Assembly (NCBI GenBank): GCA_002781785.1
Contig: PFGC01000041.1
Span: forward strand, 145 to 64,144
Length of the DNA: 64,000 bases
From: Candidatus Kerfeldbacteria bacterium CG15_BIG_FIL_POST_REV_8_21_14_020_45_12
Lineage (GTDB): Bacteria; Patescibacteriota; Patescibacteriia; UBA9570; XYC2-FULL-38-9
Direction of reading: 5' to 3'
A model generated the notes under the pieces. That model saw only the letters and a list, made by a program, of their open reading frames with translations. It searched no databases and had not been told where the DNA came from. This document shows, in pieces, positions 27,748 through 49,655 of this stretch. The position numbers and the translations under genes are program-made. Positions within the stretch are counted from its first letter, which is position 1; each line of letters starts with the position of its first letter.

Positions 27748-27778
27748 CAGCCTCCTAATTGGAGGCTGTTTTTATTTT
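27748..27778 (+). terminator. Rho-independent terminator at a convergent gene junction
   Basis: Stem CAGCCTCC (27748-27755), 5-nt loop, stem GGAGGCTG (27761-27768), then TTTTTATTTT. Located 9 nt after the aminotransferase stop codon. Confidence 0.6.
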
Positions 27779-29958
27779 GTATCTAATCTCTGCCAATAGT
27801 AAACTTCAACATTTGAGTTCTTCAACTCAGGCACTTGACTGGTTTTGTACTCAGCCTGCTCAGCAATAAATTTACGCACAGGCCTTGTCAAATGATGAGC
27901 CTTGCCCGCTGGCCAAATAAACCACATCGCCTCATGTTCCTTAACCATTTTCTTTAACTTCTTCAATGTCAAGCTTTGCTGTTCACCCAAATTAATAACT
28001 TCTAAATCCTTATCAACCCCCCAGTAGACACCTCTGAAAGACTGCGCAAAAATTGGCTCCGATACCGACCTGTTTCCTTTTACATAAGCATAAGCTGTAC
28101 GGACATCATGTCCAATACCAGCAACATGCACTTGTTCTGACCTCCCCTCATAAGTTAGCCCCCACAAGGCCGGCACTCCTGGGAGTGTGATAGGTACAAA
28201 AATCAGTATAGCAGTTAAAACAGTGACTCCCCTGCCTAAGCGCTGATTATTAAATACAGCACTCAATCGTTCGAGAGCATAGTACAAAACCACCGATGCG
28301 ACAGTTAAAGCCATTGGCATAATAAATAATATATAACGCATGGCGTTATATCTTTTCACAGCAAAAGTGAAGAGCAAAATTACTGCCACAGACACGACAC
28401 TAATAAATCTACCGCCGGAACTATGTCGCAGATTATAGATAATGCCTACTAAGTAAAGTACAATCACTAAAGCGACGATCGGCTGGTCAGAAAACGGTAT
28501 CAATTCATATTGAAAATTTGCAATTGGCCTCCAACCAATGAACTGCCCCAACAAAGAAACATTGAAGACTTGAAATGCCACAGCCCCTAACCACACTATC
28601 ACCACGCCCAGCAACACCCATAATCCAGCCACTTGTCTCTGGCGATGACTGCCATCATTTGCTACTTCCCAAATTAACTCAACTATTAAGTATAAAAGCC
28701 AGGCTGGAAAGAAAATCAAAAATAGGAAATGCGTTTCAATAGCCAGCAGGCTCATTAAAACTGCCAAAATACCTACCGCCACCAATCTAAACCAACGCAC
28801 GGTCGCCGCCATAGACAATCTATAACACGCGTACCACAACAACATAGCGGCGTTCCCAACAACTAACAACATACTGTACATCCTCACTATCCTGGCGTGC
28901 AAAATAAAATGATCTAAAAACACAAAGGCAAGAACTGTCACCGTGGCTACTCCAATATTTTTAGTCCAAACTCGAATTACAATATAGGCTCCAGCAATAA
29001 ATATCATAAACCACATCACTGACGGTAAGCGCAGAGCAGATTCTGATAAGCCGAATATAGCTAAAGCCCCTGTTGTTTGCAGTGTGTAAGCCCGAGCTCG
29101 GTCATACCGCAAAACCTCTCCGTCCGCATCGAGTAGCGGAGCATCATCAACCGCGTTCCACTGCACAAAATCTCCAGACTCACGCAGGCCCAGAGCTGTG
29201 TTTACATGATAGTACTCGTCATTTTGAAAACTCAATCCAGACAAATTTGTTCCCGTAACCATTAAAGTTAAAAATAAAAGTCCAGCCAAAACAATTCCAT
29301 CAACCCATCCTGGAACTGACCATTTTTGTATCCCCAATTGAAAATGTGCTCTAGTATTTTCAGTTAATCCTCTAGAGTGCACTAACGCAACAAATCCTCC
29401 AACCACCGTTGCCGAAAGAAATAATAAAACCAAATCCAGATCTCCAACTGATCTTTCACCAAACTGCCCAGCGCTAAAAAATCTATATAGAACTAATATA
29501 CCTATCGCCCCATACCCAGTCCAAGCTGGTAACTTAAGTGCGTGGTGTCGTAAAAGGAGAGCAGCAGGAATAGTAAAAAATAGGAAACAAGTTCCTGTTA
29601 GCCAAACATCTCCTAAAATTGGCTCCCCTATTGCCAAGCAAACCATCACAACTGGGAAGCTGGACATTGCCACATAAAATAACAACTGATCACGACTCAT
29701 TCTGTGCTGCAAACTCGCCCACACAACTGCGGCAATAACTATACCAGCCGCTATATATGGAATTGGCGAAACAGACAAACCTCCAACCTCTAGCCAACTG
29801 ACAATAAAAAAATGTACCGAAACTGAATACAAGACTGAGAGCGGGTACAACCATCTCTTTAAATCTTCAGAATGCTGATTATACACTAACCACAAAAAAG
29901 CTAGCGCCATGGCACCCAGAAAAACTAGTGTATCTGTCAAGAAAACCCATGAGCTCAT
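27772..29958 (-). CDS. Large polytopic membrane protein (728 aa), possibly a GT-C-like glycosyltransferase or polymerase
   Basis: About 15 hydrophobic helices along most of its length, plus a C-terminal soluble domain of about 130 aa. No diagnostic motif recognised. Confidence 0.4.
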   Translation of the reverse strand: MSSWVFLTDTLVFLGAMALAFLWLVYNQHSEDLKRWLYPLSVLYSVSVHFFIVSWLEVGGLSVSPIPYIAAGIVIAAVVWASLQHRMSRDQLLFYVAMSSFPVVMVCLAIGEPILGDVWLTGTCFLFFTIPAALLLRHHALKLPAWTGYGAIGILVLYRFFSAGQFGERSVGDLDLVLLFLSATVVGGFVALVHSRGLTENTRAHFQLGIQKWSVPGWVDGIVLAGLLFLTLMVTGTNLSGLSFQNDEYYHVNTALGLRESGDFVQWNAVDDAPLLDADGEVLRYDRARAYTLQTTGALAIFGLSESALRLPSVMWFMIFIAGAYIVIRVWTKNIGVATVTVLAFVFLDHFILHARIVRMYSMLLVVGNAAMLLWYACYRLSMAATVRWFRLVAVGILAVLMSLLAIETHFLFLIFFPAWLLYLIVELIWEVANDGSHRQRQVAGLWVLLGVVIVWLGAVAFQVFNVSLLGQFIGWRPIANFQYELIPFSDQPIVALVIVLYLVGIIYNLRHSSGGRFISVVSVAVILLFTFAVKRYNAMRYILFIMPMALTVASVVLYYALERLSAVFNNQRLGRGVTVLTAILIFVPITLPGVPALWGLTYEGRSEQVHVAGIGHDVRTAYAYVKGNRSVSEPIFAQSFRGVYWGVDKDLEVINLGEQQSLTLKKLKKMVKEHEAMWFIWPAGKAHHLTRPVRKFIAEQAEYKTSQVPELKNSNVEVYYWQRLDTK

Positions 29959-30043: not shown

Positions 30044-31114
30044 ATGGACACTTCCCACATTCTGTTCCTCACCCGTAAATTCCCGCCTTCTCGTGGCGGC
30101 ATGGAAACATTTAGCTACGAGCTAACCCAACGGTATCCAGGCTCTAGCGAAGTTGTACACTATGGTCATAAACAACATGACATTATTTGGGCTGCACCAA
30201 TGTTGTTATTCTCAGCTTTTAGTCGCCGCAAACAAGTTAATCTAATCCATTTAGGAGATCTCGTTCTAGCACCGCTGGCCCCCTTTCTAAAACGTTGGTT
30301 TAAAGTTCCAGTTGTAGCCACCGCTCACGCCTTGGAATTAACTCATGGCAATCGCCTATTGCAGTGGTTAATTAATAGATCGCTACCCGATCTAACACAC
30401 ATAGTAGCTGTTAGCGACTTCACCAAAGATTTACTTATAAGTCGCGGTGTCTCTCTTGATAAAATTTCTGTCATCACCCACGGAATTGAACCTCCTATTG
30501 AACTAGACCGCAATCAAGCCCGCGCCACTCTTTCTACTAAACTAAAATTAACCAGCGATGATGTCCATCGTCCACTACTTCTCACCGTTGGTCGACTGGT
30601 AAAACGAAAAGGGGTGGCTTGGTTTATAGAAAATGTCCTTGATACCTTAGGGGCATCTCCCATATATTTAATTTCTTCAGACGGTCCTGACAAAACTGAC
30701 CTTGAAAAACTAGCTACCACCAGACCTAATGTTCGTTTACTAGGCAAGGTTGATGACATGTTTCTCAGCACGCTGTATGCCGGAACAGATATTTTTATTA
30801 TGCCCAACATTGATATTACCGGTGACGCTGAAGGCTTTGGCTTTGTCGCCATCGAGGCTGCAGCTCACGGGCTGCCGGTAGTGGCAGCCCGTCTAGATGG
30901 CATCCCTAACGCAATTCACGATGACAAGAATGGCAAACTAGTAACCCCAGGTGCAGCTGATGAATTTATTTACGTTATTAATCAATGGGTAAATAACCCG
31001 CAAGACAGACAAGACTTTGGCCAAGCCGCTAAAGCCTATACCGTACGTCATTTTTCCTGGGACGATAGAGTCAAGCAATATCAAGAGTTGTTTTTATTAC
31101 TTTTAAAGCCATGA
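30044..31114 (+). CDS. Glycosyltransferase family 4
   Basis: GDAEGFGFVAIEAAAHGLPVVAARLDGIP (E-x7-E). Confidence 0.8.
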   Translation: MDTSHILFLTRKFPPSRGGMETFSYELTQRYPGSSEVVHYGHKQHDIIWAAPMLLFSAFSRRKQVNLIHLGDLVLAPLAPFLKRWFKVPVVATAHALELTHGNRLLQWLINRSLPDLTHIVAVSDFTKDLLISRGVSLDKISVITHGIEPPIELDRNQARATLSTKLKLTSDDVHRPLLLTVGRLVKRKGVAWFIENVLDTLGASPIYLISSDGPDKTDLEKLATTRPNVRLLGKVDDMFLSTLYAGTDIFIMPNIDITGDAEGFGFVAIEAAAHGLPVVAARLDGIPNAIHDDKNGKLVTPGAADEFIYVINQWVNNPQDRQDFGQAAKAYTVRHFSWDDRVKQYQELFLLLLKP

Positions 31115-32550
31115 ACCTAACAAAGGTTGTTTTCAAAAATTTTTCCTACATCATGATCGGACGTGTCCTCTTTCGTTTCTTGAATGCGGCCATCATGATC
31201 TATGCCGCTCGCTATCTTGGAGTGGACCGCTACGGAATGTTTGAAACCGCCCTAGCCTGGGCCAATGCGTTTTTGGCGCTCAACGACGTTGGCATGAGTA
31301 CACTAATCGTACGAGAGGGGGCTCGAGACGAATCAAAAATTGCTGTCTATTTTGGAAACACTTTGTTAGTTGAAGTTATCTTCTCCATTATTTTGTACGC
31401 GACCGTCTTATTGGTCGGTTTTGGAATTGGTTACAACCACACTACCATGGTTCTACTAGCCATCCTCGGAGCCGGAGGTTTAATCTTTGAGTTCCGCAAA
31501 GTCATGCGCGGAATCTTCCGAATTTATCTTAAACTAAAAGTGGTGGCCTTCCTAGAAGTTCTCAACGGCATTATTTATTTCCTTTTAACCTTGTGGATTG
31601 TCACCACGATCAAGGACATCGACGTCGGTCTACTGGGTATTGCTCACGCCAATTTGTGGACAAACGTGCTCTTTGTCGCAGCTTTGTTCTTTTACACTCT
31701 ACGCTTCGTCAAACCAAAAATTGACCGCAAGCAAATCTGGCCAATGATCAAGCAGTCATACGTATTCACCTTGTACAATTTATTTTTCATGTTGTACTTC
31801 CAAATTGATCAGATAATTCTCTCCATCCTCAAACCGGCTAGTGAGGTTGGCATCTATTCGGCCTCAGCAAAATTAGTTGGTGCATTTCTGTTTATTCCAG
31901 TCATGCTCTTTCAAGTCACCATGCCAATTATGTATCAAGCTAGTCGTGAAGACATGCCAAGATACAAGCGTATTAATCATATGAAGTGGCGCTATCTAGC
32001 TGCCTTCGGCATTCCCGCTGGAGTTGGCCTTTGGTTACTAGCTCCACAAATCATCAACTTTGTGTTTGGAGAAAAGTATCTTGCCTCTATTCCAGTGCTT
32101 GCAGTCATGGGTTGGTTTTTAGCCATTCGCTTCACTGCGCTGTCTCAAGGCAATTCTCTAACCACCACTGATCGCCAAGGCCTACGCGCCTTCATTCAAA
32201 TTCTCTCCCTAGTCTTAAATATTGTTCTGGACATTATCTTGATCAAAAAATATGGAGCACTTGGGGCTGGTATAGCCACCTTAATCACTGAAGCCTGCAT
32301 CGCCACGTCTTATCTATATTTTTCAGCCAAGTATTTGGAAGAAAGCGTGCTCAAAAACAGCTTATCCTTGCTGCCAATTGTGGGAGCAACGCTAGTTATG
32401 AGCCTGGCTGTTTTCTTGGCAAAAGACCAACTGCATGTTATCTTTGTGATGCTTTTAGGCGTAATAACCTACCTCCCCTTCCTCTGGATTTTTAGGTTCT
32501 TTCGCCCCTACGACAAACAGATTTTGCAGCAAATAATGAGCAAGCCATAG
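31111..32550 (+). CDS. Wzx-like oligosaccharide flippase (MOP superfamily polysaccharide biosynthesis protein)
   Basis: N-terminus NFSYIMIGRVLFRFLNAAIMIYAARYLGVDRYG is typical of Wzx. About 12-14 TM helices. Confidence 0.7.
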   Translation: MNLTKVVFKNFSYIMIGRVLFRFLNAAIMIYAARYLGVDRYGMFETALAWANAFLALNDVGMSTLIVREGARDESKIAVYFGNTLLVEVIFSIILYATVLLVGFGIGYNHTTMVLLAILGAGGLIFEFRKVMRGIFRIYLKLKVVAFLEVLNGIIYFLLTLWIVTTIKDIDVGLLGIAHANLWTNVLFVAALFFYTLRFVKPKIDRKQIWPMIKQSYVFTLYNLFFMLYFQIDQIILSILKPASEVGIYSASAKLVGAFLFIPVMLFQVTMPIMYQASREDMPRYKRINHMKWRYLAAFGIPAGVGLWLLAPQIINFVFGEKYLASIPVLAVMGWFLAIRFTALSQGNSLTTTDRQGLRAFIQILSLVLNIVLDIILIKKYGALGAGIATLITEACIATSYLYFSAKYLEESVLKNSLSLLPIVGATLVMSLAVFLAKDQLHVIFVMLLGVITYLPFLWIFRFFRPYDKQILQQIMSKP

Positions 32551-32551
32551 C

Positions 32552-33283
32552 ATGCGTACAATAATAATGGCCGCTGGTGCCAGTCGACGCCTTCAACCGC
32601 TCACTGACACTATTCCAAAAACCTTACTTAAGCTCGGTGAAAAAACTATCTTAGCTAGGATTTTAGATACAGCCAGAGAGCAAAGTTTGACGCATTTTGA
32701 CATCGTCACCGGACACGGGCATCCAGCCGTAGAGGAATTTGCTGCTGAATATCAAACTGCTCACCCCGACATCAACATCAATCTCATTTATAACGATCAG
32801 TACGACTCCACTGGTAATATTGTTTCACTTCAATATGCCAACCAGGCCTTCGACGAAGATTTTCTAATTGTAAACTCGGACACTATATTCCATGCTGACA
32901 TTCTCAAGCGCTTGCTAGATTCAAACCACCCCAATGCTATGGTGGTAGACAACGTCAGCCAGCTTGGAGAAGAAGAGATGAAAGTGCTCACCGATGACAA
33001 AGAAGCCATTACGCACATTCACAAAAGTCTCGACCCAGACTCCGCTACTGGTGAGTACATTGGCATCATGAAGTTATCTAAGGATGTAAAACAGAAATTG
33101 CTCAACAGTCTTGATCAAACTATAAACAAGGACAATTCTCTTTACTATGAAGACGCCTTGCAGCATTTGATCACCGACAACGGGATTACCATTCACCCAG
33201 TCTATACCGATAGTCTGCCAAGTATGGAAATCGATACTCCAGAGGACCTAGATGACGCTGGCAAGTTAATTCTAGAAATGTAA
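32552..33283 (+). CDS. Nucleotidyltransferase (LicC/MobA-like cytidylyl/sugar-phosphate nucleotidyltransferase)
   Basis: IIMAAGASRRLQPLTDTIPKTLLKLGEKTIL resembles the LicC N-terminus (ILAAGLGTRLRPLTENTPKAL). Confidence 0.65.
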   Translation: MRTIIMAAGASRRLQPLTDTIPKTLLKLGEKTILARILDTAREQSLTHFDIVTGHGHPAVEEFAAEYQTAHPDININLIYNDQYDSTGNIVSLQYANQAFDEDFLIVNSDTIFHADILKRLLDSNHPNAMVVDNVSQLGEEEMKVLTDDKEAITHIHKSLDPDSATGEYIGIMKLSKDVKQKLLNSLDQTINKDNSLYYEDALQHLITDNGITIHPVYTDSLPSMEIDTPEDLDDAGKLILEM

Positions 33284-33285
33284 AT

Positions 33286-34368
33286 ATGTCAGTCATTCTT
33301 CGTAACATTCAAATCCCTCTCTTTATCAAAATAGAGACTGGTTGCTTGCAGAACATTCGACAAATTCTCGACGAACATCATTTGCATTTTCAAAAACCGT
33401 TAGTTCTGTCTGAAGAACACATTCTAGCCCTCGGCGGTAATGATGTTGTAAATGCTCTCGGCAATCCCGCCACAGTTTTGATGAAAGAAAATTCCATCGC
33501 GGCTGGCGACCGCCTAGCCAAGGAAATTAGAGAAAAGGGCAACGATCTGATTGTCAGCGTCGGCGGTGGCCGCACGCTTGACCTTGGTAAATACGCTGCT
33601 ACTAAAGCCGGTGTAAATTACATTTCAATACCAACCTCACCATCTAACGATGGTATTTGCTCTCCGGTAGCCGTACTGACAGACGACGACATGACCAAGA
33701 GCCTTCCTGTCAATATGCCTATTGGAATATTTGTCGACACCTCTATCCTAACCAGCGCTCCGATACACAACATTAGAGCTGGCATTGGAGATCTCATTTC
33801 AAATATGTCTGCTATAAACGACTGGAGACTAGCTTACCACGACGGCAAAGAAAGCATGGATGACTTTGCTGCCTCTATCGCTTTTTCCGCCGCTCAGCTA
33901 ATTCACGAAACCTGCCGCGGTGTAAATATAAATATTTCCGATGAAGCCTTTCTAGAAAAACTTGTCCATGGATTGATTCTGTCTGGAATTGCCATGAACA
34001 TTGCTGGCAACAGTCGTCCCTGTTCGGGTTCAGAACACGAAATCTCCCACGCTATTGATGCACTATTTCCTGGCAGATCTATTCATGGACTGCAGGTTTC
34101 TTATGGAACCTTACTTGGCTGCTTCCTCAGAAAAGAGGAGGACCTGCTGGTTGATTTAGTAGATTTTTTTGCTCGCGTTGAGCTGCCTGCCACTCACCAA
34201 GAACTAGGCCTTACCGATGATGAAATGATCGATGTGTTTCTAAAAGCTCCGGAAACTCGCCCAGAGCGATATACTATTTTGGAAAAACTACACATCACTG
34301 ACAGAGGTGCGGTAGCTAAACTGCTCAATGAATACAATGCCCACATCGCCGAACTCCAAGGTAAATAA
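33286..34368 (+). CDS. sn-glycerol-1-phosphate dehydrogenase-like enzyme (G1PDH/AraM family, DHQS-like iron-ADH superfamily)
   Basis: GGGRTLDLGKYAA (NAD site), IPTSPSNDGICS, DTSILTSAPIHNIRAGIGDLISN, metal-ligand region SGSEHEISHAID and HGLQVSYG. This pattern fits the G1PDH/glycerol-DH branch. Confidence 0.55.
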   Translation: MSVILRNIQIPLFIKIETGCLQNIRQILDEHHLHFQKPLVLSEEHILALGGNDVVNALGNPATVLMKENSIAAGDRLAKEIREKGNDLIVSVGGGRTLDLGKYAATKAGVNYISIPTSPSNDGICSPVAVLTDDDMTKSLPVNMPIGIFVDTSILTSAPIHNIRAGIGDLISNMSAINDWRLAYHDGKESMDDFAASIAFSAAQLIHETCRGVNINISDEAFLEKLVHGLILSGIAMNIAGNSRPCSGSEHEISHAIDALFPGRSIHGLQVSYGTLLGCFLRKEEDLLVDLVDFFARVELPATHQELGLTDDEMIDVFLKAPETRPERYTILEKLHITDRGAVAKLLNEYNAHIAELQGK

Positions 34369-35134
34369 TCAGGAAAATCCACGCTGGATAATAAAACGGG
34401 AAGATCCGCTCTATGGCCACTACGTTGTCCAGCAATTAGCCTACTTTGTAGTTAGGTTAATAGACCGAACCCCGATCACGCCAAATTTTGTCACAGCGCT
34501 CTCCTTTCTCACCGGCCTTACTGGCGCTGTACTTTTTGCTCTGGGCCAGCGTCACTATTTTATCTGGGGAATACTTTTTATAAACTTAGCCTTAATCCTT
34601 GATTGTGTTGATGGCCAGCTTTGCCGTAGACGTGGCACAGGCTCTAATTTTGGGGCTTGGCTTGACTACCATACGGATAAACTAAAAGACGGCGCCGTTC
34701 TACTTGGCTGGACCATTGGTGCCTACAAACTAGCCAGTGCTCATTCGGCAGAAATTGTTAGTAGCTTTCCGCAAACCTCTCTAGCCATACTTTATTTTAC
34801 AGTAGCTTTCTTAGCTATCTTCTTTCAATTTCTCCGCAATATCACAGCGCTTAATCGAGACATTAATACCCTGCAAAAAACCGGTCACAAAGATGAACCA
34901 AGAACCTTCTACGACACCTCAGCAAATTCTGGCCAATTCATCCGTTCACTCAAGCACTCTCTACTATTTAAGTATGCCGATCGCATCTTACTGTTTACTA
35001 TCTTTGGCTTACTAGGGCTTTACTTTCAAGCAATTATCGTGTACGCTGCCCTGGCAATTTTTTACGCAACGCTCTCTGCCTTCCTTAATTATCGTGAAGG
35101 CTGGCGCGCCGACCAAGTAAAACAACCCCAATAA
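34328..35134 (+). CDS. CDP-alcohol phosphatidyltransferase-family membrane enzyme
   Basis: Family motif D-G-x2-[AC]-R-x8-G-x3-D-x3-D is present as LDCVDGQLCRRRGTGSNFGAWLDYHTDKLKD. Multiple TM helices. Confidence 0.75.
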   Translation: MNTMPTSPNSKVNNQENPRWIIKREDPLYGHYVVQQLAYFVVRLIDRTPITPNFVTALSFLTGLTGAVLFALGQRHYFIWGILFINLALILDCVDGQLCRRRGTGSNFGAWLDYHTDKLKDGAVLLGWTIGAYKLASAHSAEIVSSFPQTSLAILYFTVAFLAIFFQFLRNITALNRDINTLQKTGHKDEPRTFYDTSANSGQFIRSLKHSLLFKYADRILLFTIFGLLGLYFQAIIVYAALAIFYATLSAFLNYREGWRADQVKQPQ

Positions 35135-35137
35135 ACT

Positions 35138-35367: not shown

Positions 35368-36051
35368 ATGCGCGCTGTCATCCTAGCCGCTGGGATGGGC
35401 ACACGTCTTGGTGGCGACGTTCCCAAACCCCTTACTCCGCTGATGGCAGATCGGACAATTATTGATTTACAAATTGCTAAACTAGAACCACTGGTCGGAC
35501 GAGACAACATTACAGTAGTCATCGGCTATGAGCAGGAACAATTCATGGACCGCTTTCCAGATCTTAATTTTGTAATAAACGAACAGTACCAGTTTACCAA
35601 TACCGCCAAGAGCTTACTACTGGCTCTTAAAACGATCAGCAACGAATCGGTACTTTGGATGAATGGCGATATCTTTTTTGATGACAGCGTACTCGACTAC
35701 CTTACCCAAGCCAGCGGATCAACCTGCCTAGTTGATACCAAGCAGTGCGGTGAGGAGGAGATAAAATATACAACCAACGAGCGTGGCACCATTGACCAGC
35801 TTTCCAAGCAGGTACAAAACGCTGAGGGAGAAGCTCTAGGGATAAATCTAATTGAAGCTACTGACCTAAGCCTGTTTACTGAACAGCTTGAGAGCGTCGG
35901 CGATAACGATTATTTTGAAAAGGCCCTCGAAGAACTTACAACTTCCGGGCGTTTGGAGCTGACTCCAGTCGATATTGAAACAGCTTTTTGCCAAGAGATA
36001 GACTTCCCAGAAGACCTCGCGCAAGTTCAAGCCCATCTTGAGGCCAATTAA
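35368..36051 (+). CDS. Nucleotidyltransferase (MobA/LicC-like)
   Basis: MRAVILAAGMGTRLGGDVPKPLTPL. Confidence 0.65.
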   Translation: MRAVILAAGMGTRLGGDVPKPLTPLMADRTIIDLQIAKLEPLVGRDNITVVIGYEQEQFMDRFPDLNFVINEQYQFTNTAKSLLLALKTISNESVLWMNGDIFFDDSVLDYLTQASGSTCLVDTKQCGEEEIKYTTNERGTIDQLSKQVQNAEGEALGINLIEATDLSLFTEQLESVGDNDYFEKALEELTTSGRLELTPVDIETAFCQEIDFPEDLAQVQAHLEAN

Positions 36052-36123: not shown

Positions 36124-37755
36124 ATGAAGAAAAAAACCGTTGTTTTGGGGCTCGATGGAGCTACTTGGAAGATCCTAAAACCTTTTGCTGAAGCCGGCTA
36201 CATGCCGACATTAAAGGGATTACTTGAACGTGGCGTCCACGGCGAACTAGAATCCACCATGCCAGCCATGACTGCTCCGGCTTGGGTGACTTTCGCAACC
36301 GGAAAACATCCTGGTAATCACGGCGTGTTTGATTTTATGTTGCCTACCGACAGTTTGGGCAAGATGAAGTTTGCCACTGCAAAAGATATTCGTGATAAAA
36401 CACTCTACGAAATACTAAAAGACGAAGGATATACTCCAATTTTAGTTAACCTTCCCGCTACCTGGCCACCCAAGCGTGATGACATTATTACCATTACTAG
36501 CTTGCTAACCCAGGGCGACCAGTGGGTCTATCCAGCTTCTTTAAAGGAGGAATTCCCAGAACTAGCTAAGTACCGCCTAACTCCAGACGAGAGCCTGAGG
36601 GTGGCCGAACGCCGTGACGAGTACATCGTTGATCTACTTGCCCATCTTGAAGAGCAAATGGCAGCAGTTAGACGTTTATTTACTGAGAAACCCTGGGACT
36701 TTTTCTTCTACCTATTCTCACACTCAGATTGGATCTCGCACCTGGCTTACACTGAGCTCGAAGAAGAACATGAACCCAAAGCCAGGGCCATTTTTGAAAG
36801 AATTGACCAACACCTCAAGTGGTTTACAGAAAATATTCCAGCAGACACTAATTTAATCTTACTGTCTGATCATGGTTTTACGGCCTACAAAAAAGTTTTT
36901 TACTTTAACCGGTGGCTTGAGCAGGAAGGATATCTTAAGACCAACAAGGAAGGTGATAAAATGCGCGGTGCGGCAACTCGACGCGCGAAGGAGAGCGATA
37001 AAATTACGGCTACAAAAAAACGCGTAAACATTGGCACCGGCCTGCTTCGATTTCTTGATACTTTCCCCTTCTTAAAACCAGTTGCTAAGTGGTCCTACCA
37101 CTCAGTTATAAAAAAGTACCTACCAATAAATTTAAAAGTTAATGTTGGTATAGACTTTCCAAATACCAAAGTTTGCTTTCCTAAGGGTAGTTATATTACC
37201 AATGGTTATATCAATAAAAACTGGGTTTATACCGATGGTTGTATAAGTCGCGAAGAATATCCCAAATTAGTCGAAGAGCTGGCAGAGAAAATACGCAATA
37301 TCAAAGATCCGTCTGGCAATCCGGTAGTGGCTAAAGTAATGACTCGTAAAGAGGTTTACGGTGACACTGCTCCTGATGAGGCTCCAGATATTTTCTTTGA
37401 ACTATCGGACTACTGGCTGATTGGTAATTTTAATTCTAGCTCGCTATTTGATGAAGAGATAGAAAACAAACATGGCAAGATGGGTATTTTTCTAGCCGTC
37501 GGACCAGATTTTGAAACAGACGCCGATGTGGAAGGGCTAAAAATGCAAGATGTCACTCCAACTATTTTACATCTATTAGGTTTACCAGTACCTGAAGACT
37601 GCGACGGTCAGGTAGCCCACGCTCTGTTTAAAGCTGGCTCTGAGCCAAGAGAGCGTAGCGTTAACTTTGGAGCACCATCCAGACTAGACGATAAACCTAG
37701 TGAGTCCAGTGAAAAAACTTCTTTGGCCAAAGCAATTGGAAAAATAAAGCTCTAA
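36124..37755 (+). CDS. Alkaline-phosphatase-superfamily enzyme, NPP/type-I-phosphodiesterase-like (543 aa, cytoplasmic)
   Basis: N-terminus KTVVLGLDGATWKIL and the nucleophile region TMPAMTAPAWVTFATGKHPGNHGVFDF. This parallels the NPP motif T-F-P-N-H..TG.YP..HGI. Has no signal peptide. Paralog of 47244..48635. Confidence 0.7.
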   Translation: MKKKTVVLGLDGATWKILKPFAEAGYMPTLKGLLERGVHGELESTMPAMTAPAWVTFATGKHPGNHGVFDFMLPTDSLGKMKFATAKDIRDKTLYEILKDEGYTPILVNLPATWPPKRDDIITITSLLTQGDQWVYPASLKEEFPELAKYRLTPDESLRVAERRDEYIVDLLAHLEEQMAAVRRLFTEKPWDFFFYLFSHSDWISHLAYTELEEEHEPKARAIFERIDQHLKWFTENIPADTNLILLSDHGFTAYKKVFYFNRWLEQEGYLKTNKEGDKMRGAATRRAKESDKITATKKRVNIGTGLLRFLDTFPFLKPVAKWSYHSVIKKYLPINLKVNVGIDFPNTKVCFPKGSYITNGYINKNWVYTDGCISREEYPKLVEELAEKIRNIKDPSGNPVVAKVMTRKEVYGDTAPDEAPDIFFELSDYWLIGNFNSSSLFDEEIENKHGKMGIFLAVGPDFETDADVEGLKMQDVTPTILHLLGLPVPEDCDGQVAHALFKAGSEPRERSVNFGAPSRLDDKPSESSEKTSLAKAIGKIKL

Positions 37756-39559: not shown

Positions 39560-40246
39560 CTAACCTCGCTGACTTAAGCGATAGGCTGAAGACAATTGTT
39601 TTAATACTAACGGAATACTAACTAGCAAGAAAATCCACAAGGCTACATATTCCAAATTTACCACCACAGCCAGACTGACTAAGTAAATAGTCACATCAAC
39701 AGTGCCAATGTAAACATTTTTGGAAATAAATATCTCAGAAGTTCTGGTGGTGGGCCAAGAACTCTTTTTTGCTTCTCGCAGGTAAGACACTAAAAGTAAT
39801 CCAATGATAGCGCCGGCTCCGACTACAATTACCCAAACACTAGTCTGCTGATAGGTATACCAATATGCTGTCATTGCCCCAAACATCATAATTTCCTTGA
39901 AGCGATCAAAAACGGAATCAAGCCAGGCTCCAAATTTAGAACTTAAGTTTGTAATCCTGGCCACCTCTCCATCCGAGCAATCAAAAGCAAAACTTAACTG
40001 TAATAAAACCGCTCCAGCAAACCTCCACCAATAGCCTGGGAATATCAATAAAATACAAGCAACCACCGCTAGAAAAAACGAAATTACTGATACCATGTTA
40101 GGAGTCACTGCTGGCCAAAACCGCACGAATAAATAAGTAATTACCTGCGAAATTTTTCTCGTAATATAGTAAGAAAAGATCGAGTCTTGCGGCTTTTGAA
40201 ATGGTTTTACATCGGCAATACGTTTGATGTCATGCATAAAGATCAC
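39560..40246 (-). CDS. CDP-alcohol phosphatidyltransferase-family membrane enzyme (second copy)
   Basis: Family motif present as FAFDCSDGEVARITNLSSKFGAWLDSVFDRFKE. Shares FGAWLD with 34328..35134. Confidence 0.75.
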   Translation of the reverse strand: MIFMHDIKRIADVKPFQKPQDSIFSYYITRKISQVITYLFVRFWPAVTPNMVSVISFFLAVVACILLIFPGYWWRFAGAVLLQLSFAFDCSDGEVARITNLSSKFGAWLDSVFDRFKEIMMFGAMTAYWYTYQQTSVWVIVVGAGAIIGLLLVSYLREAKKSSWPTTRTSEIFISKNVYIGTVDVTIYLVSLAVVVNLEYVALWIFLLVSIPLVLKQLSSAYRLSQRG

Positions 40247-41979
40247 TCAACTGGTAAAAGTCTATAAATATGAACGTCTGTCTGAAAACTGTAATTCTGC
40301 ACTAAAACTTCTTCGTGCGGTTGGTCTTCAAGCCACAAATGTAGCCTCACCGAAGAGGTAGAATCTTCCCAGACATAGACATCATACCCCGCTTGCAACA
40401 TCTGATCAAAAAACTTTTCAACCTCTACCTGATCAAAATCAAAGCGTTGTTCTAAAGGATAACGAATTGATTTAAGTCCAGTATGGGCCTCAACCATCTC
40501 TGATAAGCCGTACTGCCAGTCACCTGACATCATTAAAACACTTTTTTCATTCACTGGAACACCATCAGGAATCGACCGCAAAGTTGCCAAGTCATCTGCC
40601 GAAATAGACTTATTCCGATAGACTTGGGCAGCTAGATTTTCTCTTACTTCAGCTATAGTTGGCTGATACGAAAAAATAACTCCACCAATAATTCCGACCA
40701 CTACAACTACATGCTGCCAACGTTTTTGAAACAACCGAAAAACCCCATCCGTTACCACCTCAACTACACCGTAAACACCTATCACAATTAAGGCTGGAAA
40801 CAGCGGTAAAATATAACGAGAATATGGATTTATCCACAACGAAAAGATGGTTAAAACACCTAATACCCACAAGCTCAACAGAGCGGCAGTTGGCCTAGAC
40901 TCACGCCATAAATAGAGTAAACCAAAAGCTACAAAAACAATGAAATATGGAAGCGGAGTAGCGTTTTTAATTATCTGCCAATAGTGAGGCAAGGCTCCTT
41001 TACCGGGACGGAACTTGCCATCGTTATCGAATAAATTATTTACCGACAATGTCTGAATGTGGTTGATATTAGAAAGCAGTACAACTTCGCTAGTGTCTCT
41101 TTTTTTAAACACCTCCTTATGCGCAGAGATGGTGGCAGAATTTTGAATAGTTGGAATTAGCGCAATAATCCAAGTTACGAAGAAAACGCCAACGTAGGGC
41201 AACGTGTGTTTAAGATTTGTCTTCCAAGTGTACTGCTTGTGCCACAAAGCAGAAATAGCATAAACCAGTGCTGCAGGCAGAACTACCCCACTAGTCTCTC
41301 GAATATTAAAAGCCATTCCAAAAACCAAGGCTGAAACTACCAACCAAATCGTAGCCACACCGCGCTTTACCTCGCGATGCTTTAATTGCCGCACAGCCAT
41401 CACCAAAGCTATCATAGTTACCAGCAAAAAGGTCATCGACGGAATTTCTCGCATCGGTTGCGATAAAGCGTATGCGTAATACAAGCTAGAAAATCCTAAG
41501 GCCAGCGACGACAGCAAACCAATGACATGTCTATATTGATGTTTTGGAAAAAGAGTCATCACTAACAAATACGTCAGCACCAGATTAGTCGTAGCCAACA
41601 GCGGCATTACTAGATAGAACCCGGAGCTATCTCCAACTATTCTTGCCGCCAAAGCCAGTAGCAAAGATGCTCCAACTGGATACTTCGAAGCGATCCAGCC
41701 CTCTTGGTTAATAAACTCGTGGTGGGTCGGCGTCAGCCAGCGCGCCAATTTCTCATCTCCAAAAAAATCAAAACCCATCTGAGCTAAATCATCATGGTAC
41801 ACCAACGGCTTGTCTTGAATCATGCGTCCAGCCAAATATATGTAACCAGCCGAATCATCTCCCCAGGTTCCCCAAGCATGATCATCAAAATAGATTATAC
41901 CGAACAGCAAGACTATGGCAGCAATAATTACCCCGCCAATCAGCCAATGTATCAAAGATTTTTTTTTGTGTGGTGTCAT
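40243..41979 (-). CDS. Polytopic membrane protein (578 aa), possibly a GT-C-like glycosyltransferase
   Basis: More than 10 TM helices, an N-proximal acidic loop (WGTWGDDSAGYIY, YHDDLAQMGFDFFGDEK), and a C-terminal soluble domain. Overlaps cysC and the CDP-OH transferase by 4 nt each. Confidence 0.45.
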   Translation of the reverse strand: MTPHKKKSLIHWLIGGVIIAAIVLLFGIIYFDDHAWGTWGDDSAGYIYLAGRMIQDKPLVYHDDLAQMGFDFFGDEKLARWLTPTHHEFINQEGWIASKYPVGASLLLALAARIVGDSSGFYLVMPLLATTNLVLTYLLVMTLFPKHQYRHVIGLLSSLALGFSSLYYAYALSQPMREIPSMTFLLVTMIALVMAVRQLKHREVKRGVATIWLVVSALVFGMAFNIRETSGVVLPAALVYAISALWHKQYTWKTNLKHTLPYVGVFFVTWIIALIPTIQNSATISAHKEVFKKRDTSEVVLLSNINHIQTLSVNNLFDNDGKFRPGKGALPHYWQIIKNATPLPYFIVFVAFGLLYLWRESRPTAALLSLWVLGVLTIFSLWINPYSRYILPLFPALIVIGVYGVVEVVTDGVFRLFQKRWQHVVVVVGIIGGVIFSYQPTIAEVRENLAAQVYRNKSISADDLATLRSIPDGVPVNEKSVLMMSGDWQYGLSEMVEAHTGLKSIRYPLEQRFDFDQVEVEKFFDQMLQAGYDVYVWEDSTSSVRLHLWLEDQPHEEVLVQNYSFQTDVHIYRLLPVE

Positions 41980-42602
41980 GAAACGATTTGACGTCTCTTT
42001 AGCTCAGCAATTAACTGTTCAACACATTCATCAACGCTGTTCACGCCTGTATCAACAACAACCTCTGCTGTTTTTGGCTCCTCGTAAGGTGCGTCAATTC
42101 CAGTAAAATCCTTAATTTCACCAGCTCTAGCTTTTTTATACAAACCCTTTGGATCACGAGACTCACAAACTTCTAAATCACATTTAACATAGACCTCTAA
42201 AAATTGATTACCCTCCACCAGAGACCTGGCTGAATCACGATCACTTCGGTAGGGTGAAATAAAGGAAGCCATCACCACAACACCTGCATCCACAAACAAT
42301 TTGGCGACTTCTCCTATGCGACGAATATTTTCTGTTCTATCTTCTGGGGAAAAACCTAAGTCAGCATTTAAACCATGCCTAATGTTATCTCCATCCAATC
42401 TATAAGCCAGATTACCTAGCTGGTTTAGTCTAGTTTCTAAAGCTACAGCTACAGTTGACTTACCGGATCCCGATAAACCCGTAAACCACAAAACAACTCC
42501 TTTTTGAGATAATAATTTTTCACGGTCAACACGTGTAATTTCTCCCTCGTGCCAAGTAACGTTGGTAGATTTGTTCATGAATATACCTATTGAATAGATC
42601 AA
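41976..42602 (-). CDS. cysC: Adenylyl-sulfate (APS) kinase
   Basis: P-loop VLWFTGLSGSGKSTVAVALE. The motifs DGDNIRHGLNADLGFS and ENIRRIGEVAKLF are diagnostic of APS kinase. Confidence 0.88.
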   Translation of the reverse strand: MIYSIGIFMNKSTNVTWHEGEITRVDREKLLSQKGVVLWFTGLSGSGKSTVAVALETRLNQLGNLAYRLDGDNIRHGLNADLGFSPEDRTENIRRIGEVAKLFVDAGVVVMASFISPYRSDRDSARSLVEGNQFLEVYVKCDLEVCESRDPKGLYKKARAGEIKDFTGIDAPYEEPKTAEVVVDTGVNSVDECVEQLIAELKRRQIVS

Positions 42603-47243: not shown

Positions 47244-48635
47244 CTATTCAATAACCTTGCCGCGCATGTCACTTGGTACGCCCTGACCAAAGTCTGCGAG
47301 AATAGATGGCGTAACATCTAGAATATCCAAATCATCCCGCTTCCCCTGCCCTGCCACAGCCGGATCATATTTTACAAAGATTCCGTTCCAGTCATGTACA
47401 CCATAATCTAAACCACGATCATCCTGATCAATGTAATGACTATCATATCCAAGCGTGCCGGCTACTTTCCAATACAAGTCTCCCCAAAAAATTAGTAAGT
47501 CTGGGACATCTCCAGTGGCTTCTGGATATAATTCTGTAGCTCTATATATCTTGTGCTCTAAAACCTGACCATCAGGACCTGCTACCTGCATGAGCTTGCC
47601 TCTTAGCTCCTCGATAAAACTTTCATACTCAGCCTCAGGTACGACGCCTTGAGGCTCTCGTCCCTCCAAGTTAACAAACAGTCGAGCGTAAAAACCACCC
47701 CACGCCCAGGCGCGAGTTTTGGACCAGTCTACATCACACTTTTCAATACTAGTTGGTTCCTTTGGTTTATTCTTTAACACCAAATAGCCATTATCAATTA
47801 ACCATTCATTGATAACAAACATACCTTCCATCCGCTTAGCTCCGTGATCAGACACCACATAAAAAATCGTGCCCTCAGGTGCTAAAGCCTGCAAATCTCC
47901 AATCCACCTATCAATGTGTCTATAATATTCACGAATCTTTTCCTCGTAAGGATTTCCAGCTTCGTAATCTTTGTGCTCTGGATCCATGTACTGCCACAGA
48001 TAGTGATGAATACGATCTACACCCATCTCTACCATCATCAAGAAATCCCACTCTTTCTCTGTAATCCATTGCTTGAAAATCTTTTGCCGCTGATCGGTCA
48101 TTTTATAGATAACATCCAGCACCTCATCAGGTGGAGCCTGAGTACGATTTGCAAAATCGAAGATGTAGTCATCTGGAGCGACCGCATCTAAAATTTCCTT
48201 TTTTAGCTCAGCTGGATAAGTAAACTCAACATCTGTACCAGGTGTCAGAAAACTTGAAACCATCATTCCATTCACAGGCCTAACTGGATAAGTTTGAGGA
48301 ACTCCCAACATGCCGACTTTTTTTCCGGCGTCACCCAAATATTCCCAAACTCGTTTCTCCTTAACCATGCCACCATGAGCAATATCCATTTCGCCATAAT
48401 CAGAACCGGGTGTACGGGATCTGAAACCATAAATACCCAAATCACCAGCATGTTTGCTAGTGGTCATAGCCGCCCAAGCTGGCACTGTAATTGGTGGGAT
48501 AGTACTTTTTAGTGGGCCCCAAGTGCCTTGCTTCATCATGGCCGCAATATTCGGCAAATCTTCTTGATAACGATCAAACACCAGTTGCGGGGTCGCACAG
48601 TCTAATCCAATAACGATAACTTTAGGTTCACTCAT
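47244..48635 (-). CDS. Alkaline-phosphatase-superfamily enzyme, NPP/type-I-phosphodiesterase-like (463 aa, cytoplasmic), paralog of 36124..37755
   Basis: N-terminus KVIVIGLDCATPQLV and TIPPITVPAWAAMTTSKHAGDLGIYGF align with the paralog's GLDGATW and nucleophile region. Confidence 0.7.
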   Translation of the reverse strand: MSEPKVIVIGLDCATPQLVFDRYQEDLPNIAAMMKQGTWGPLKSTIPPITVPAWAAMTTSKHAGDLGIYGFRSRTPGSDYGEMDIAHGGMVKEKRVWEYLGDAGKKVGMLGVPQTYPVRPVNGMMVSSFLTPGTDVEFTYPAELKKEILDAVAPDDYIFDFANRTQAPPDEVLDVIYKMTDQRQKIFKQWITEKEWDFLMMVEMGVDRIHHYLWQYMDPEHKDYEAGNPYEEKIREYYRHIDRWIGDLQALAPEGTIFYVVSDHGAKRMEGMFVINEWLIDNGYLVLKNKPKEPTSIEKCDVDWSKTRAWAWGGFYARLFVNLEGREPQGVVPEAEYESFIEELRGKLMQVAGPDGQVLEHKIYRATELYPEATGDVPDLLIFWGDLYWKVAGTLGYDSHYIDQDDRGLDYGVHDWNGIFVKYDPAVAGQGKRDDLDILDVTPSILADFGQGVPSDMRGKVIE

Positions 48636-48638: not shown

Positions 48639-49655
48639 CTATGATAATTGATCAAGCAAAAACTTCTCTACTTTTGGCAAAAAATCTGACAGTGTCATGT
48701 CCAATAAAACAATGCCAGCGACCTCAGGCTTGCCACCAGAATTTTGTCCTAGCCCCCTCGCAAACTCTGTAACCTTACGACAATCAATCTTGTCTGTACG
48801 TGTTCGAATATAGACCATATCAAGTCCACCTTTGCTCTGCCAAGTTAGCACTACTTTATCAGCAAACTCTCGAGCCTTGGCCCGAGTAGCCTCGGACAAG
48901 ACGCTAACTTCCGAAATAAATTCAAAAGACACTAAATCGGCCGATTCTATGTATGTTTTCGGTTCCTGATTCAAAACCCGCTTTAATTCATCAGAAATTT
49001 TTTGTTCATTCATTACAAATCTAGCATCAGTCAATACCAACTTTGGATCACGCCGTAAAATATCAATCGTATCAGCCATGCCCCGTGAATCACCCAACAT
49101 ATACATCGTATCGACCAATTTAGTGAGGCGCATAATTCCAGGCCAATCCAAACCTGACTCCTCCATCATTTCTCTTACTTGTGGCCAAAACTCCGCCTCA
49201 TCGCGAATCGCCTCTTCCTTATCCCCAACCGCACCAAGTACCGATACTAATGACAGCGGCTTCATCAAGTAATCATTAATCAGCATCGATGCAGATGGGT
49301 ATTTAGTGTCCTGCAAACCCGGTCGATCAATATCAGCAGTCTGAGCGTGATTATCAAAAACAAACAACAACCCACCTTCTTCTAGTCGCGTTATCGTATC
49401 AAGCGGGGCATTAAAATCCATCATTACAACGGCATCAGCTCCGTAAGCAGCTATCCGTTCAAACTCCTCATTCACTAGAAAATAACGATTGATGGTGGGG
49501 TGTTCGATTATAATTTCAGTGGCCGGAGAGACCTCCTCAAAAAAATTAATGAAGAGTGCGCAGCTGGCCAAACCATCGCAGTCCCAATGGTACAGTAAGA
49601 CTACCTTCGCAGGTTTTGCAGTCGATACCCACTCCTGAAAATCTGGATGTAGCAT
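48639..49655 (-). CDS. DHH-family phosphoesterase (NrnA-like), probable 3'-phosphoadenosine-5'-phosphate (pAp) phosphatase / nanoRNase
   Basis: N-terminal DHH motif I/II region VVLLYHWDCDGLASCAL, as in NrnA (H..PDGDA.GS), and DNHAQT (DHH-like motif III). Start and stop abut sat and the AlkP-like gene. Confidence 0.6.
   Translation of the reverse strand: MLHPDFQEWVSTAKPAKVVLLYHWDCDGLASCALFINFFEEVSPATEIIIEHPTINRYFLVNEEFERIAAYGADAVVMMDFNAPLDTITRLEEGGLLFVFDNHAQTADIDRPGLQDTKYPSASMLINDYLMKPLSLVSVLGAVGDKEEAIRDEAEFWPQVREMMEESGLDWPGIMRLTKLVDTMYMLGDSRGMADTIDILRRDPKLVLTDARFVMNEQKISDELKRVLNQEPKTYIESADLVSFEFISEVSVLSEATRAKAREFADKVVLTWQSKGGLDMVYIRTRTDKIDCRKVTEFARGLGQNSGGKPEVAGIVLLDMTLSDFLPKVEKFLLDQLS

Follow-up and report, generated by a model that had tools for sequence, protein, structure and literature searches.

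A 64-kb stretch of DNA from a Candidatus Kerfeldbacteria metagenome-assembled genome (contig PFGC01000041.1), hereafter the window, carries a cassette of genes for a nucleotidyltransferase (NT1), a dehydrogenase of the sn-glycerol-1-phosphate dehydrogenase (G1PDH) family, and a class I cytidine diphosphate (CDP)-alcohol phosphotransferase (CPT1). We propose, with moderate confidence, that this CDP-glycerol cassette transfers glycerol phosphate to a membrane-bound acceptor, which is then exported by a Wzx-type flippase. Gene identities, family placement, catalytic motifs, operon coupling, and patterns of conservation and substitution were established directly, and from them we infer the substrates, the stereochemistry, the acceptor, and the final product. 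A prediction made earlier from the letters of the window (hereafter the original prediction) had put forward a CDP-activated polyol phosphate, possibly of sn-glycerol-1-phosphate (sn-G1P) stereochemistry, attached to a lipid or a glycan by a chemistry other than that of TagF; the comparative evidence upholds this core, while the background in which it was framed needs mending.

Organization of the cassette

The window proteins correspond to PIW36758-PIW36776 by exact sequence match and belong to the Candidate Phyla Radiation (CPR)/Patescibacteria. Nearly all open reading frames (ORFs) of at least 120 aa were scanned against Pfam, and 20 of these against NCBIfam. A plus-strand operon opens with a GT4 glycosyltransferase (30044..31114; Glyco_trans_1_4, 7.6e-26), the stop of which overlaps the next start by 4 nt, and continues with a Wzx-type (Polysacc_synt) flippase (31111..32550; PF01943, 4.5e-24). 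The ORF map then places the three genes of the original prediction consecutively, as it had them: NT1, a LicC/PntC-type nucleotidyltransferase of 243 aa (32552..33283; NTP_transf_3, 1.5e-13, and NTP_transferase), the G1PDH-family (Fe-ADH_2) dehydrogenase of 360 aa (33286..34368; PF13685, 5.5e-31), and CPT1, a six-helix class I CDP-alcohol phosphotransferase of 268 aa (34328..35134; PF01066, with the complete signature). The CPT1 gene has been called elsewhere with a start at 34337 (265 aa), which is the probable true start.

Neighbors among these five genes overlap or sit 1-2 nt apart, and they look like one translationally coupled unit. Scanning 29800-40400 for promoters and terminators gave nothing beyond the shuffled expectation, and tRNA and Rfam scans of the window were both empty.

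Conservation and substitution across loci

Dehydrogenase homologs at 49-75% identity all come from Patescibacteria, and the same gene block was found, where sequence was available, in six distinct Patescibacteria loci (L001-L004, L008, and L012; L numbers denote loci carrying G1PDH-family homologs). On the plus strand, the block consists of the glycosyltransferase, Wzx, NT1, the G1PDH-like dehydrogenase, CPT1, and an alkaline-phosphatase-superfamily protein (AlkP1). On the convergent minus strand, it consists of a second CDP-alcohol phosphotransferase (CPT2), a GT-C glycosyltransferase, an adenosine 5′-phosphosulfate (APS) kinase, a second alkaline-phosphatase-superfamily protein (AlkP2), a DHH-family protein, an ATP sulfurylase, and a GT2 glycosyltransferase. 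The GT-C gene adjoining CPT2 is kept in L001-L004. Because the block recurs in six distinct loci, its arrangement is not a chance neighborhood.

The strongest single argument for the proposed function is substitution: the NT/dehydrogenase pair is found with a TagF-type enzyme in L028 and with CPTs elsewhere, and either Wzx or TagGH serves as the exporter. Locus L028 encodes Wzx, NT, the G1PDH-like enzyme, and, in the position of the CPT, a TagF-type CDP-glycerol glycerophosphotransferase (PF04464, 232 bits). Since a TagF-type enzyme substitutes there, the NT/dehydrogenase pair appears to supply CDP-glycerol and the CPT to fill the role of TagF. A flippase gene directly precedes that of the NT in L001-L004, L012, L016, and L028; in L017, it comes before the dehydrogenase gene instead.

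Other loci keep the same families in varying orders. These are Wzx, NT, G1PDH-like, and CPT in L016; CPT, NT, G1PDH-like, and CPT in L030; and NT, G1PDH-like, and a WbaP-type transferase in L026 and L061, where a type-1 CPT is directly upstream of an AlkP gene. In L017, from an exosortase-bearing organism, Wzx is followed by G1PDH-like, NT, CPT, a protein with 12 transmembrane segments, an AlkP2-like protein (462 bits), a short gene, APS kinase, and an AlkP1-like protein. Apparent fusions of NT with G1PDH in L030 and of CPT with AlkP in L061 were dismissed, as both arose from ORFs extended too far in DNA of high GC content.

The gene set is widespread, Streptomyces included. By tblastn of plasmid and chromid records, a version was found on Streptomyces fungicidicus p1 (L092, NZ_CP023408.1, 6447-13502), with genes for a CPT-DUF5941 fusion, a LicC-family NT, an Fe-ADH_2 dehydrogenase, a 259-aa CPT, a GT2, TagG, and TagH, directly beside a hopanoid cluster (hpnCDE, shc). 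The Streptomyces ortholog of the window dehydrogenase is WP_121548871. This synteny has been listed as an uncharacterized teichoic-acid-associated orphan group in a 2026 pan-proteome study (PMC13118837). The dehydrogenase homolog on D. vulgaris pDV is solitary, with neither NT nor CPT.

A scan of a genome collection with a single protein recovered three close loci only, and a metagenome scan 80 further loci. In a distance tree, 87 full-length G1PDH homologs fell into two groups, 36 with the window protein and 51 with the M. jannaschii and P. calidifontis enzymes. The dehydrogenase gene adjoins an NT1-like gene in 23 of the 36 members of the window group versus 0 of the 51 in the archaeal-type group (Fisher p = 3.6e-12), and it has a CDP-alcohol transferase gene no more than 9 kb away in 16/36 versus 0/51 (Fisher p 6e-08), p-values that overstate independence, as the loci are phylogenetically related. 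The NT-linked dehydrogenases form a mostly bacterial group apart from the archaeal housekeeping G1PDH in this tree, a separation without bootstrap support.

The original prediction had treated a G1PDH together with a CDP-alcohol transferase as a signature of archaeal lipid synthesis. This framing does not hold: neither the window nor the conserved block of L001-L004 contains GGGPS/PcrB or DGGGPS (UbiA), and the NT-linked group is mostly bacterial. It would be wrong to take bacterial G1PDH homologs for markers of archaeal-type membrane lipids.

One related locus carries an archaeal label. In L009, labeled Candidatus Woesearchaeota (GCA_043803105.1, 1569-8454), a CPT, an NT-HAD fusion, a G1PDH-like enzyme 41% identical to the window protein, and Wzx are encoded in a row, which points to either module exchange between CPR and DPANN or mis-binning. 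An NTP transferase and a B12/radical SAM enzyme precede the CPT there. Separately, a 318-kb record titled 'uncultured Gammaproteobacteria bacterium' (L002/L006, CAYFNF010000002.1) carries a Kerfeldbacteria-type block with a dehydrogenase 68% identical to that of the window, and its Gammaproteobacteria label is probably wrong. Three further loci (L021, L029, and L032, one of them from a human-gut metagenome) represent a G1PDH-like subgroup without a nucleotidyltransferase; in the two that were scanned, L021 and L032, the G1PDH-like gene is followed by a gene for a DUF218 protein, a third context for the family.

The dehydrogenase belongs to the G1PDH family

With NCBIfam models, the product of 33286-34368 scored 274.5 bits for G1PDH, 86.5 for GldA, and 28 for AroB (cut-off 305). 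Against the Protein Data Bank (PDB), it matched M. jannaschii G1PDH with 155 bits, P. calidifontis G1PDH with 141, and AraM (9h4x) with 84, compared to at most 73 bits for GldA and 25 for dehydroquinate synthase (DHQS). A neighbor-joining (NJ) tree, with RefSeq-named GldA sequences as the outgroup and an AraM-type sequence from a Priestia plasmid, grouped it with archaeal G1PDHs and AraM and excluded GldA in 100/100 bootstraps. The phylogeny that the original prediction had called for therefore sets the protein with G1PDH and AraM, away from GldA, and the profile scores rule out DHQS.

The motifs that had first suggested this family are present, GGGRTLDLGKYAA at residue 93, IPTSPSNDG at 115, and SGSEHEISHAID at 247, and the metal ligands D169, H251, and H267 are retained. 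So are G123, D179-W180, the S243-R-P-x-S-G248 insertion, E250, R325, and R328, which are common to the M. jannaschii, P. calidifontis, and AraM enzymes and absent from GldA. From their conservation, R325 and R328 would suit a phosphorylated substrate, and the enzyme is predicted to reduce dihydroxyacetone phosphate (DHAP) to sn-G1P.

The top PDB match of the dehydrogenase, 3ce9 from Clostridium acetobutylicum, was deposited as 'glycerol dehydrogenase'. It falls within the G1PDH family and outside GldA in both the distance tree and the NJ bootstrap tree; by this placement, its name is probably wrong.

NT1 is a predicted glycerol-1-phosphate cytidylyltransferase

The top PDB matches of NT1 are PntC (6pd1, 55 bits) and LicC (1jyk, 34.5 bits), which together with the Pfam match bears out the LicC-like nucleotidyltransferase of the original prediction. 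Its Streptomyces ortholog goes by the RefSeq name 'phosphocholine cytidylyltransferase family'. PntC and LicC, the nearest solved relatives, activate small phospho-compounds with cytidine triphosphate (CTP). Because NT1 is coupled to a G1PDH-like gene and its counterpart in L028 has a TagF-type neighbor, we predict that it is a CTP:glycerol-1-phosphate cytidylyltransferase.

Would the activated compound be another one? The dehydrogenase and NT1 could instead make CDP-2-glycerol, as Gtp1/Gtp2/Gtp3 do in pneumococci, or another CDP-polyol, with the same transfer following. The pneumococcal order wzx-wchX-gtp1-gtp2-gtp3 (PMC5581491) indeed resembles both L028 and the window, and descriptions of the Gtp enzymes name a dehydrogenase, a nucleotidyltransferase, and a phosphotransferase. 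Yet APS kinase is the only kinase of the conserved block, no kinase was found beside the NT/G1PDH pairs of the other loci examined, and neither place holds a Gtp3 equivalent; moreover, all residues common to proven G1PDHs are kept in the window enzyme, including the two arginines that GldA lacks. We therefore consider a different alcohol unlikely. As the conserved block has no other kinase, the product of the dehydrogenase must already carry its phosphate.

A second LicC-type nucleotidyltransferase, NT2, is encoded downstream of CPT1 (35368..36051, plus strand; NTP_transf_3, 2.8e-17). The two are paralogous (30% identity), and NT2 was seen in L008 alone among the relatives, making it accessory.

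Two paralogous CDP-alcohol phosphotransferases

The CDP-alcohol phosphotransferase signature claimed for 34328-35134 is complete and lies at residues 92-117 of CPT1 (D92-x2-D95-G-x2-C-R100...G109-x3-D113-x3-D117, with Cys replacing Ala); none of its Asp, Gly, and Arg residues varies among 14 homologs. An AlphaFold (AF2) model of CPT1 showed the six-helix CDP-alcohol phosphotransferase fold (pLDDT 77.8), and Foldseek matched this model best to AF2299 (E 1.3e-07, TM 0.60), followed by phosphatidylinositol phosphate (PIP) synthases and DIPPS.

A second transferase had also been proposed next to a GT-C-like protein and cysC, and it is linked to both by gene overlap. CPT2 (39560..40246, minus strand, 228 aa; PF01066, 1.3e-18) is AF2299-like, with its signature at residues 89-114 and sequence matches to AF2299 (70 bits) and DIPPS (46 bits). 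Its gene overlaps by 4 nt that of a 578-aa GT-C/PMT_2-like membrane glycosyltransferase (40243..41979, minus strand; PMT_2, 1.6e-08; at least 9 hydrophobic segments), which in turn overlaps by 4 nt the APS kinase (CysC) gene (41976..42602, minus strand; APS_kinase, 5.2e-72, 241 bits). CPT1 and CPT2 are 28% identical over their N-terminal halves (E 1e-15).

CPT1 evolves fast: a word-indexed search gave just 18 relatives, and a profile search of 1.84 billion representatives gave 18 at E <= 1e-30 and 4544 at E <= 1e-10, with CPT-DUF5941 fusions among the next-best relatives. In a rough tree, the DUF5941 fusion of Streptomyces and one of the L030 copies fell with CPT1, and AF2299, the short CPT of Streptomyces, and the second L030 copy fell with CPT2. 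This grouping suggests that CPT1 and CPT2 represent two old paralogue types, and because of it, the loci with two transferases are read as carrying one of each.

The genes might also be ordinary housekeeping genes (GldA or DHQS plus PgsA/PssA) brought together by chance. JGI auto-annotation does name some CPT1 homologs 'phosphatidylglycerophosphate synthase', in line with such a view, as is the title of 3ce9. But the two CPTs scored only 24 and 19 bits with the pgsA equivalog (cut-off 109) and 23 and 34 bits with that of pssA (cut-off 107), and the CPT1 model matched PgsA and PssA structures at E > 0.05 only. With the dehydrogenase set apart from GldA in every bootstrap, AroB at 28 bits against 305, and synteny kept across phyla, this reading is extremely improbable. 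PgsA or PssA identity was accordingly rejected for the CPTs on equivalog scores, fold match, and synteny, and the housekeeping reading as a whole (GldA and DHQS included) on scores, fold, tree, and synteny; the original prediction had named such enzymes as the outcome that would overturn it.

Equivalog models of the closest characterized relatives did not apply either. With the DIPPS equivalog NF041135 (cut-off 580), NT1 reached 63.6, CPT1 36.8, and CPT2 88.4 bits, and the transferases likewise missed the NCBIfam equivalog cut-offs for PIPS and AIPS widely.

Cytoplasmic AlkP proteins next to the transferases

AlkP1 (36124..37755, plus strand; PF01663, Phosphodiest, 3.8e-38) is encoded downstream of CPT1 and its paralogue AlkP2 (47244..48635, minus strand; PF01663, Phosphodiest, 9e-47) in the convergent cluster; they are 29% identical. 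Neither has a transmembrane segment or a signal peptide, which makes both cytoplasmic and rules out an LtaS-like role for AlkP1. The AlkP1-type gene adjoins the type-1 CPT in L001-L004, L008, L026, and L061. AlkP2 adjoins APS kinase in relatives, and its L017 homolog (462 bits) is one short gene away from APS kinase. These proteins could act in dephosphorylation, sulfotransfer, or phosphotransfer.

An AlkP pair also accompanies NT/G1PDH/CPT genes across distant phyla (L017, 14419-18736; L026, 8224-11631; L061, 10852-12561 and 17056-18684), with one AlkP usually directly downstream of the type-1 CPT and the other beside APS kinase.

This neighborhood bears on whether the product is a soluble phosphodiester. 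NT1, the G1PDH-like enzyme, CPT1, and AlkP1 could make a compatible solute resembling diglycerol phosphate (DGP) or another glycerophospho-compound, CDP-glycerol and a polyol phosphate giving a phosphorylated diester that AlkP dephosphorylates, comparable to di-myo-inositol phosphate (DIP), glycerophosphoinositol (GPI), and DGP in Archaeoglobus and Aquifex. In addition to the cytoplasmic AlkP kept beside the CPT, the transferases are nearest to AF2299 and DIPPS, which take soluble substrates, and six-helix architecture goes with soluble acceptors (PMC4634129). However, translational coupling ties the genes to a GT4 and a Wzx flippase, and across phyla, they accompany flippases, WbaP-type transferases, a TagF-type enzyme, or TagGH exporters. 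The DIPPS scores (36.8-88 bits) are far below the cut-off, and the G1PDH-like enzyme is the sole polyol-phosphate synthase found in the scans of window ORFs, none of which encodes an inositol-phosphate synthase. A soluble product is thus quite improbable.

The surrounding glycan island

The original prediction had placed the genes in a glycan cluster. The cluster is real, and by Pfam and NCBIfam scans it takes up the entire 64 kb, a glycan island with many GT4/GT2 glycosyltransferases and sugar-nucleotide modifying enzymes. It also holds two Wzx-like flippases, GtrA, and several large GT-C/PMT_2-like membrane proteins (at least three GT-C-like: 21345-23150, 27772-29958, and 40243-41979). Many of the window proteins match archaeal NCBIfam families best, and a TrmB regulator is encoded as well, but an archaeal source of the window was rejected on the exact matches of its proteins to those of the Candidatus Kerfeldbacteria genome.

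Divergent from the operon, 27772..29958 (minus strand) encodes a 728-aa polytopic membrane protein with ~15 hydrophobic segments. No Pfam match was found for the window copy; a counterpart occupies the same position in L001-L004, with a weak PMT match for the L001 ortholog, and the protein is possibly GT-C-like. A GT2 with C-terminal transmembrane helices (51011..51976, minus strand; Glycos_transf_2; transmembrane segments at residues 226-289) is GtrB/AglJ-like and of the polyprenyl-phosphate sugar synthase type, with AglJ, dolichyl-phosphate hexose transferase, PpgS, and ArnC types as its best NCBIfam matches.

Besides APS kinase, the convergent cluster encodes an ATP sulfurylase (49656..50831, minus strand; ATP-sulfurylase, 1.4e-87, and PUA_2) and a DHH-family phosphoesterase (48639..49655, minus strand; DHH, 8.4e-06, under the Pfam cut-off), a candidate 3′-phosphoadenosine 5′-phosphate (pAp) phosphatase, the position of which is kept in L001-L003. 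With these three, the sulfate-activation set of the island is complete, which implies that a surface polymer of this CPR bacterium is sulfated. The window scans detected no classical sulfotransferase, although Sulfotransfer_1/3 genes occur close by in L001.

In the 64 kb, the Pfam and NCBIfam scans revealed no WbaP-, WecA-, or MraY-type priming phosphoglycosyl transferase and no Wzy. LicD was likewise absent from the window scans, as were TagF (Glyphos_transf, PF04464) and any TagD-type enzyme among window ORFs of at least 120 aa.

The composition of the island allows for a lipid product. CPT1 and/or CPT2 could make a phosphoglycerol lipid, for use as an unusual polar lipid or a lipoglycan anchor, either from CDP-glycerol and diacylglycerol or polyprenol or from CDP-diacylglycerol and G1P with subsequent AlkP dephosphorylation. 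The anchor would be extended by GT4s, flipped, and elongated by GT-C enzymes, as mycobacterial phosphatidylinositol (PI) is turned into phosphatidylinositol mannosides (PIM), lipomannan (LM), and lipoarabinomannan (LAM). PIP and AIP synthases are among the nearest characterized relatives of the CPTs, the island joins GT4s, a polyprenyl-phosphate sugar synthase, GtrA, and several GT-C proteins with no priming transferase, and the AlkP gene kept beside the type-1 CPT is reminiscent of the phosphatase acting after PgsA or PIPS; the Streptomyces type-1 CPT also has an extra hydrophobic DUF5941 domain. A CDP-diacylglycerol donor, however, would make NT1 needless, yet NT1 is the most tightly linked gene, and the TagF-type substitution in L028 also speaks against a lipid. 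In addition, lipid-acceptor enzymes usually have 3-4 extra helices, whereas CPT1 and CPT2 are six-helix proteins of 228-268 aa, and AF2299, the closest structure, does not process lipids (PMC4634129). On balance, we regard a lipid product as rather unlikely.

Compared to related loci, the window carries three insertions: NT2 (35368-36051), 37808-39547, and 42662-47166. The second, at the operon end on the plus strand, encodes a 140-aa protein with one C-terminal transmembrane helix, a GNAT acetyltransferase, and a stand-alone B3_4 protein akin to the PheT editing domain, odd among glycan genes. The third encodes a TrmB-family regulator, an ATP-grasp ligase distantly BesA-like (111 bits), a GATase-like protein, and a 348-aa protein with no family match.

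Proposed mechanism and its significance

In the proposed route to a membrane-bound product, the G1PDH-family enzyme would reduce DHAP to sn-G1P, which NT1 would convert with CTP to CDP-glycerol (CDP-1-Gro). On the cytoplasmic side of the membrane, CPT1 and CPT2 would then pass the glycerol phosphate on to a hydroxyl of a membrane-bound acceptor, with release of cytidine monophosphate (CMP). The acceptor would most likely be a lipid-linked glycan intermediate made by the co-transcribed GT4. The co-transcribed Wzx would flip the product outward, where the GT-C enzymes would process it further with polyprenyl-phosphate sugars, and the same polymer would probably also be sulfated, as the neighboring 3′-phosphoadenosine 5′-phosphosulfate (PAPS) module suggests. 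CPT1 and CPT2 probably differ in their acceptors, or one primes and the other extends, giving a teichoic-acid-like product.

Several points weigh against this mechanism. Six-helix CDP-alcohol phosphotransferases take soluble acceptors, the lipid-acceptor enzymes being those with the additional helices (PMC4634129). The nearest functional relatives of the CPTs, PIPS and DIPPS, use phosphorylated acceptors, and a phosphatase follows. By analogy with PIPS, DIPPS, and PgsA, an AlkP1-type protein could be the phosphatase after such a phosphorylated-acceptor reaction, and a cytoplasmic AlkP beside the type-1 CPT fits a soluble or phosphorylated acceptor as well as a glycan. The lipid-linked acceptor is hypothetical, as no priming phosphoglycosyl transferase was found in the 64 kb, and limited literature searching, with sources available in part, returned no classical CDP-alcohol phosphotransferase acting on a glycan. 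For the dehydrogenase, 274.5 bits is below the NCBIfam G1PDH equivalog cut-off of 413; because of this score, we take it for a distinct branch and not for the archaeal housekeeping enzyme. Branch order within the G1PDH family lacks support, the monophyly of the NT-linked group reaching 6% bootstrap, and the functions of this group are assigned from sequence. Finally, pneumococcal Gtp1, possibly a relative, reportedly reduces dihydroxyacetone and not DHAP.

On a broader scale, we put forward only tentatively that the cassette is a widespread, unrecognized CDP-sn-1-glycerol route in Bacteria and some DPANN archaea, made up of a G1PDH-family enzyme, a LicC-type cytidylyltransferase, and one or two six-helix CPTs, and that these CPTs would prime and extend sn-G1P teichoic-acid-like polymers at the cytoplasmic face. 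Free glycerol-1-phosphate (Gro1P) is assumed to be essentially lacking in bacteria, CDP-1-glycerol has been considered likely absent from them, and the Gro1P of lipoteichoic acid (LTA), PG, streptococcal rhamnose polysaccharides, and lipopolysaccharide (LPS) is described as phosphatidylglycerol-derived (PMC8262930). This is also where the original prediction fell short in holding that glycerol-phosphate decoration normally relies on TagD/TagF and sn-glycerol-3-phosphate (sn-G3P), since decoration with phosphatidylglycerol-derived sn-Gro-1-P was already known (PMC8262930). Limited literature searching found no paper giving a function for this cassette.

If the CDP-sn-1-glycerol route exists, a G1PDH and cytidylyltransferase cassette in the glycan loci of Patescibacteria, Actinobacteria, and other groups would overturn the phosphatidylglycerol-only origin of sn-Gro-1-P, and class I CDP-alcohol phosphotransferases would gain a role beyond phospholipid and solute synthesis. 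Actinobacteria make LTA without an LtaS ortholog, an acknowledged gap (PMC3196553), and the route would then be their missing LtaS-independent lipoteichoic/teichoic acid pathway. Streptomyces, culturable and genetically tractable, offers a model of the cassette and a testable candidate for LtaS-independent LTA synthesis (PMC3196553). In CPR bacteria, which are not culturable alone, the route would underlie a sulfated, glycerol-phosphate-bearing envelope polymer; such a predicted anionic surface polymer with phosphate and sulfate would be relevant to host attachment.

Comparison with known systems

The pneumococcal gtp1-gtp2-gtp3/wchX genes (serotypes 15 and 23) also place a dehydrogenase and an NT beside wzx in a polysaccharide locus and provide a CDP-glycerol donor for the glycerol-phosphate decoration of a Wzx-dependent repeat unit (PMC1391919, PMC5581491); Gtp1 and Gtp2 were likened to the window proteins by description and gene order. 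However, that system needs Gtp3 (glycerol-2-phosphotransferase) and yields glycerol-2-phosphate, whereas the window block has no such kinase, and its transferase is WchX, not a class I CDP-alcohol phosphotransferase.

TagD/TagF (TarD/TarF) likewise use CDP-glycerol as the donor and act on a lipid-linked acceptor on the cytoplasmic side, ahead of an export step; in L028, the place of the CPT is taken by a TagF-type enzyme, and TagGH border the cassette of Streptomyces. In contrast, their precursor is sn-G3P from GpsA or GlpK, activated by the unrelated TagD fold, and TagF, which is peripheral and GT-B-like, lacks the motif of CDP-alcohol phosphotransferases. The scanned window ORFs included no member of these families.

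Among solved structures, CPT1 and CPT2 come closest to Archaeoglobus fulgidus AF2299 and IPCT/DIPPS, which are also six-helix class I enzymes with soluble CDP-alcohol donors (CDP-glycerol for AF2299; PMC4634129). The donor pocket of AF2299 holds the glycerol of CDP-glycerol, and the protein bears a cytidylyltransferase-like domain; neither AF2299 nor DIPPS processes lipids (Clarke et al., PMC4634129). In these proteins, the NT is fused to the transferase, whereas in the window it is a neighboring gene (PMC4634129). They make, or are thought to make, soluble solutes outside glycan loci, and the polyol phosphate of IPCT/DIPPS comes from inositol-phosphate synthase, unlike that of the window, which has a dedicated G1PDH paralogue.

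With Bacillus subtilis AraM/PcrB and archaeal EgsA, the window shares the enzyme family, the metal ligands, and the family-specific residues, its dehydrogenase being nearer to archaeal G1PDH, with 155 bits, compared to 84 bits for AraM. It differs in having no GGGPS/PcrB or DGGGPS neighbor and in belonging to the NT- and glycan-linked grouping of the distance tree, which lacks bootstrap support. LtaS, GacH, and OpgB resemble the proposed route in that it would end in sn-G1P on an envelope polymer, but they are extracytoplasmic sulfatase-family enzymes that cleave phosphatidylglycerol, while the donor in the window would be cytoplasmic CDP-1-glycerol.

The Streptomyces orphan synteny group (noted in PMC13118837 as CDP-alcohol phosphatidyltransferase, GT2, sugar-phosphate nucleotidyltransferase, araM, tagG, and tagH) has the same three families in the same order and two CDP-alcohol transferases of both paralogue types. 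There, TagGH ABC export replaces Wzx, the type-1 transferase is fused to DUF5941, and no AlkP or sulfation genes are nearby. In combining a G1PDH-family dehydrogenase, a LicC-type nucleotidyltransferase, and class I CPTs within glycan loci, the cassette differs from TagD/TagF, gtp/wchX, and AF2299/DIPPS alike.

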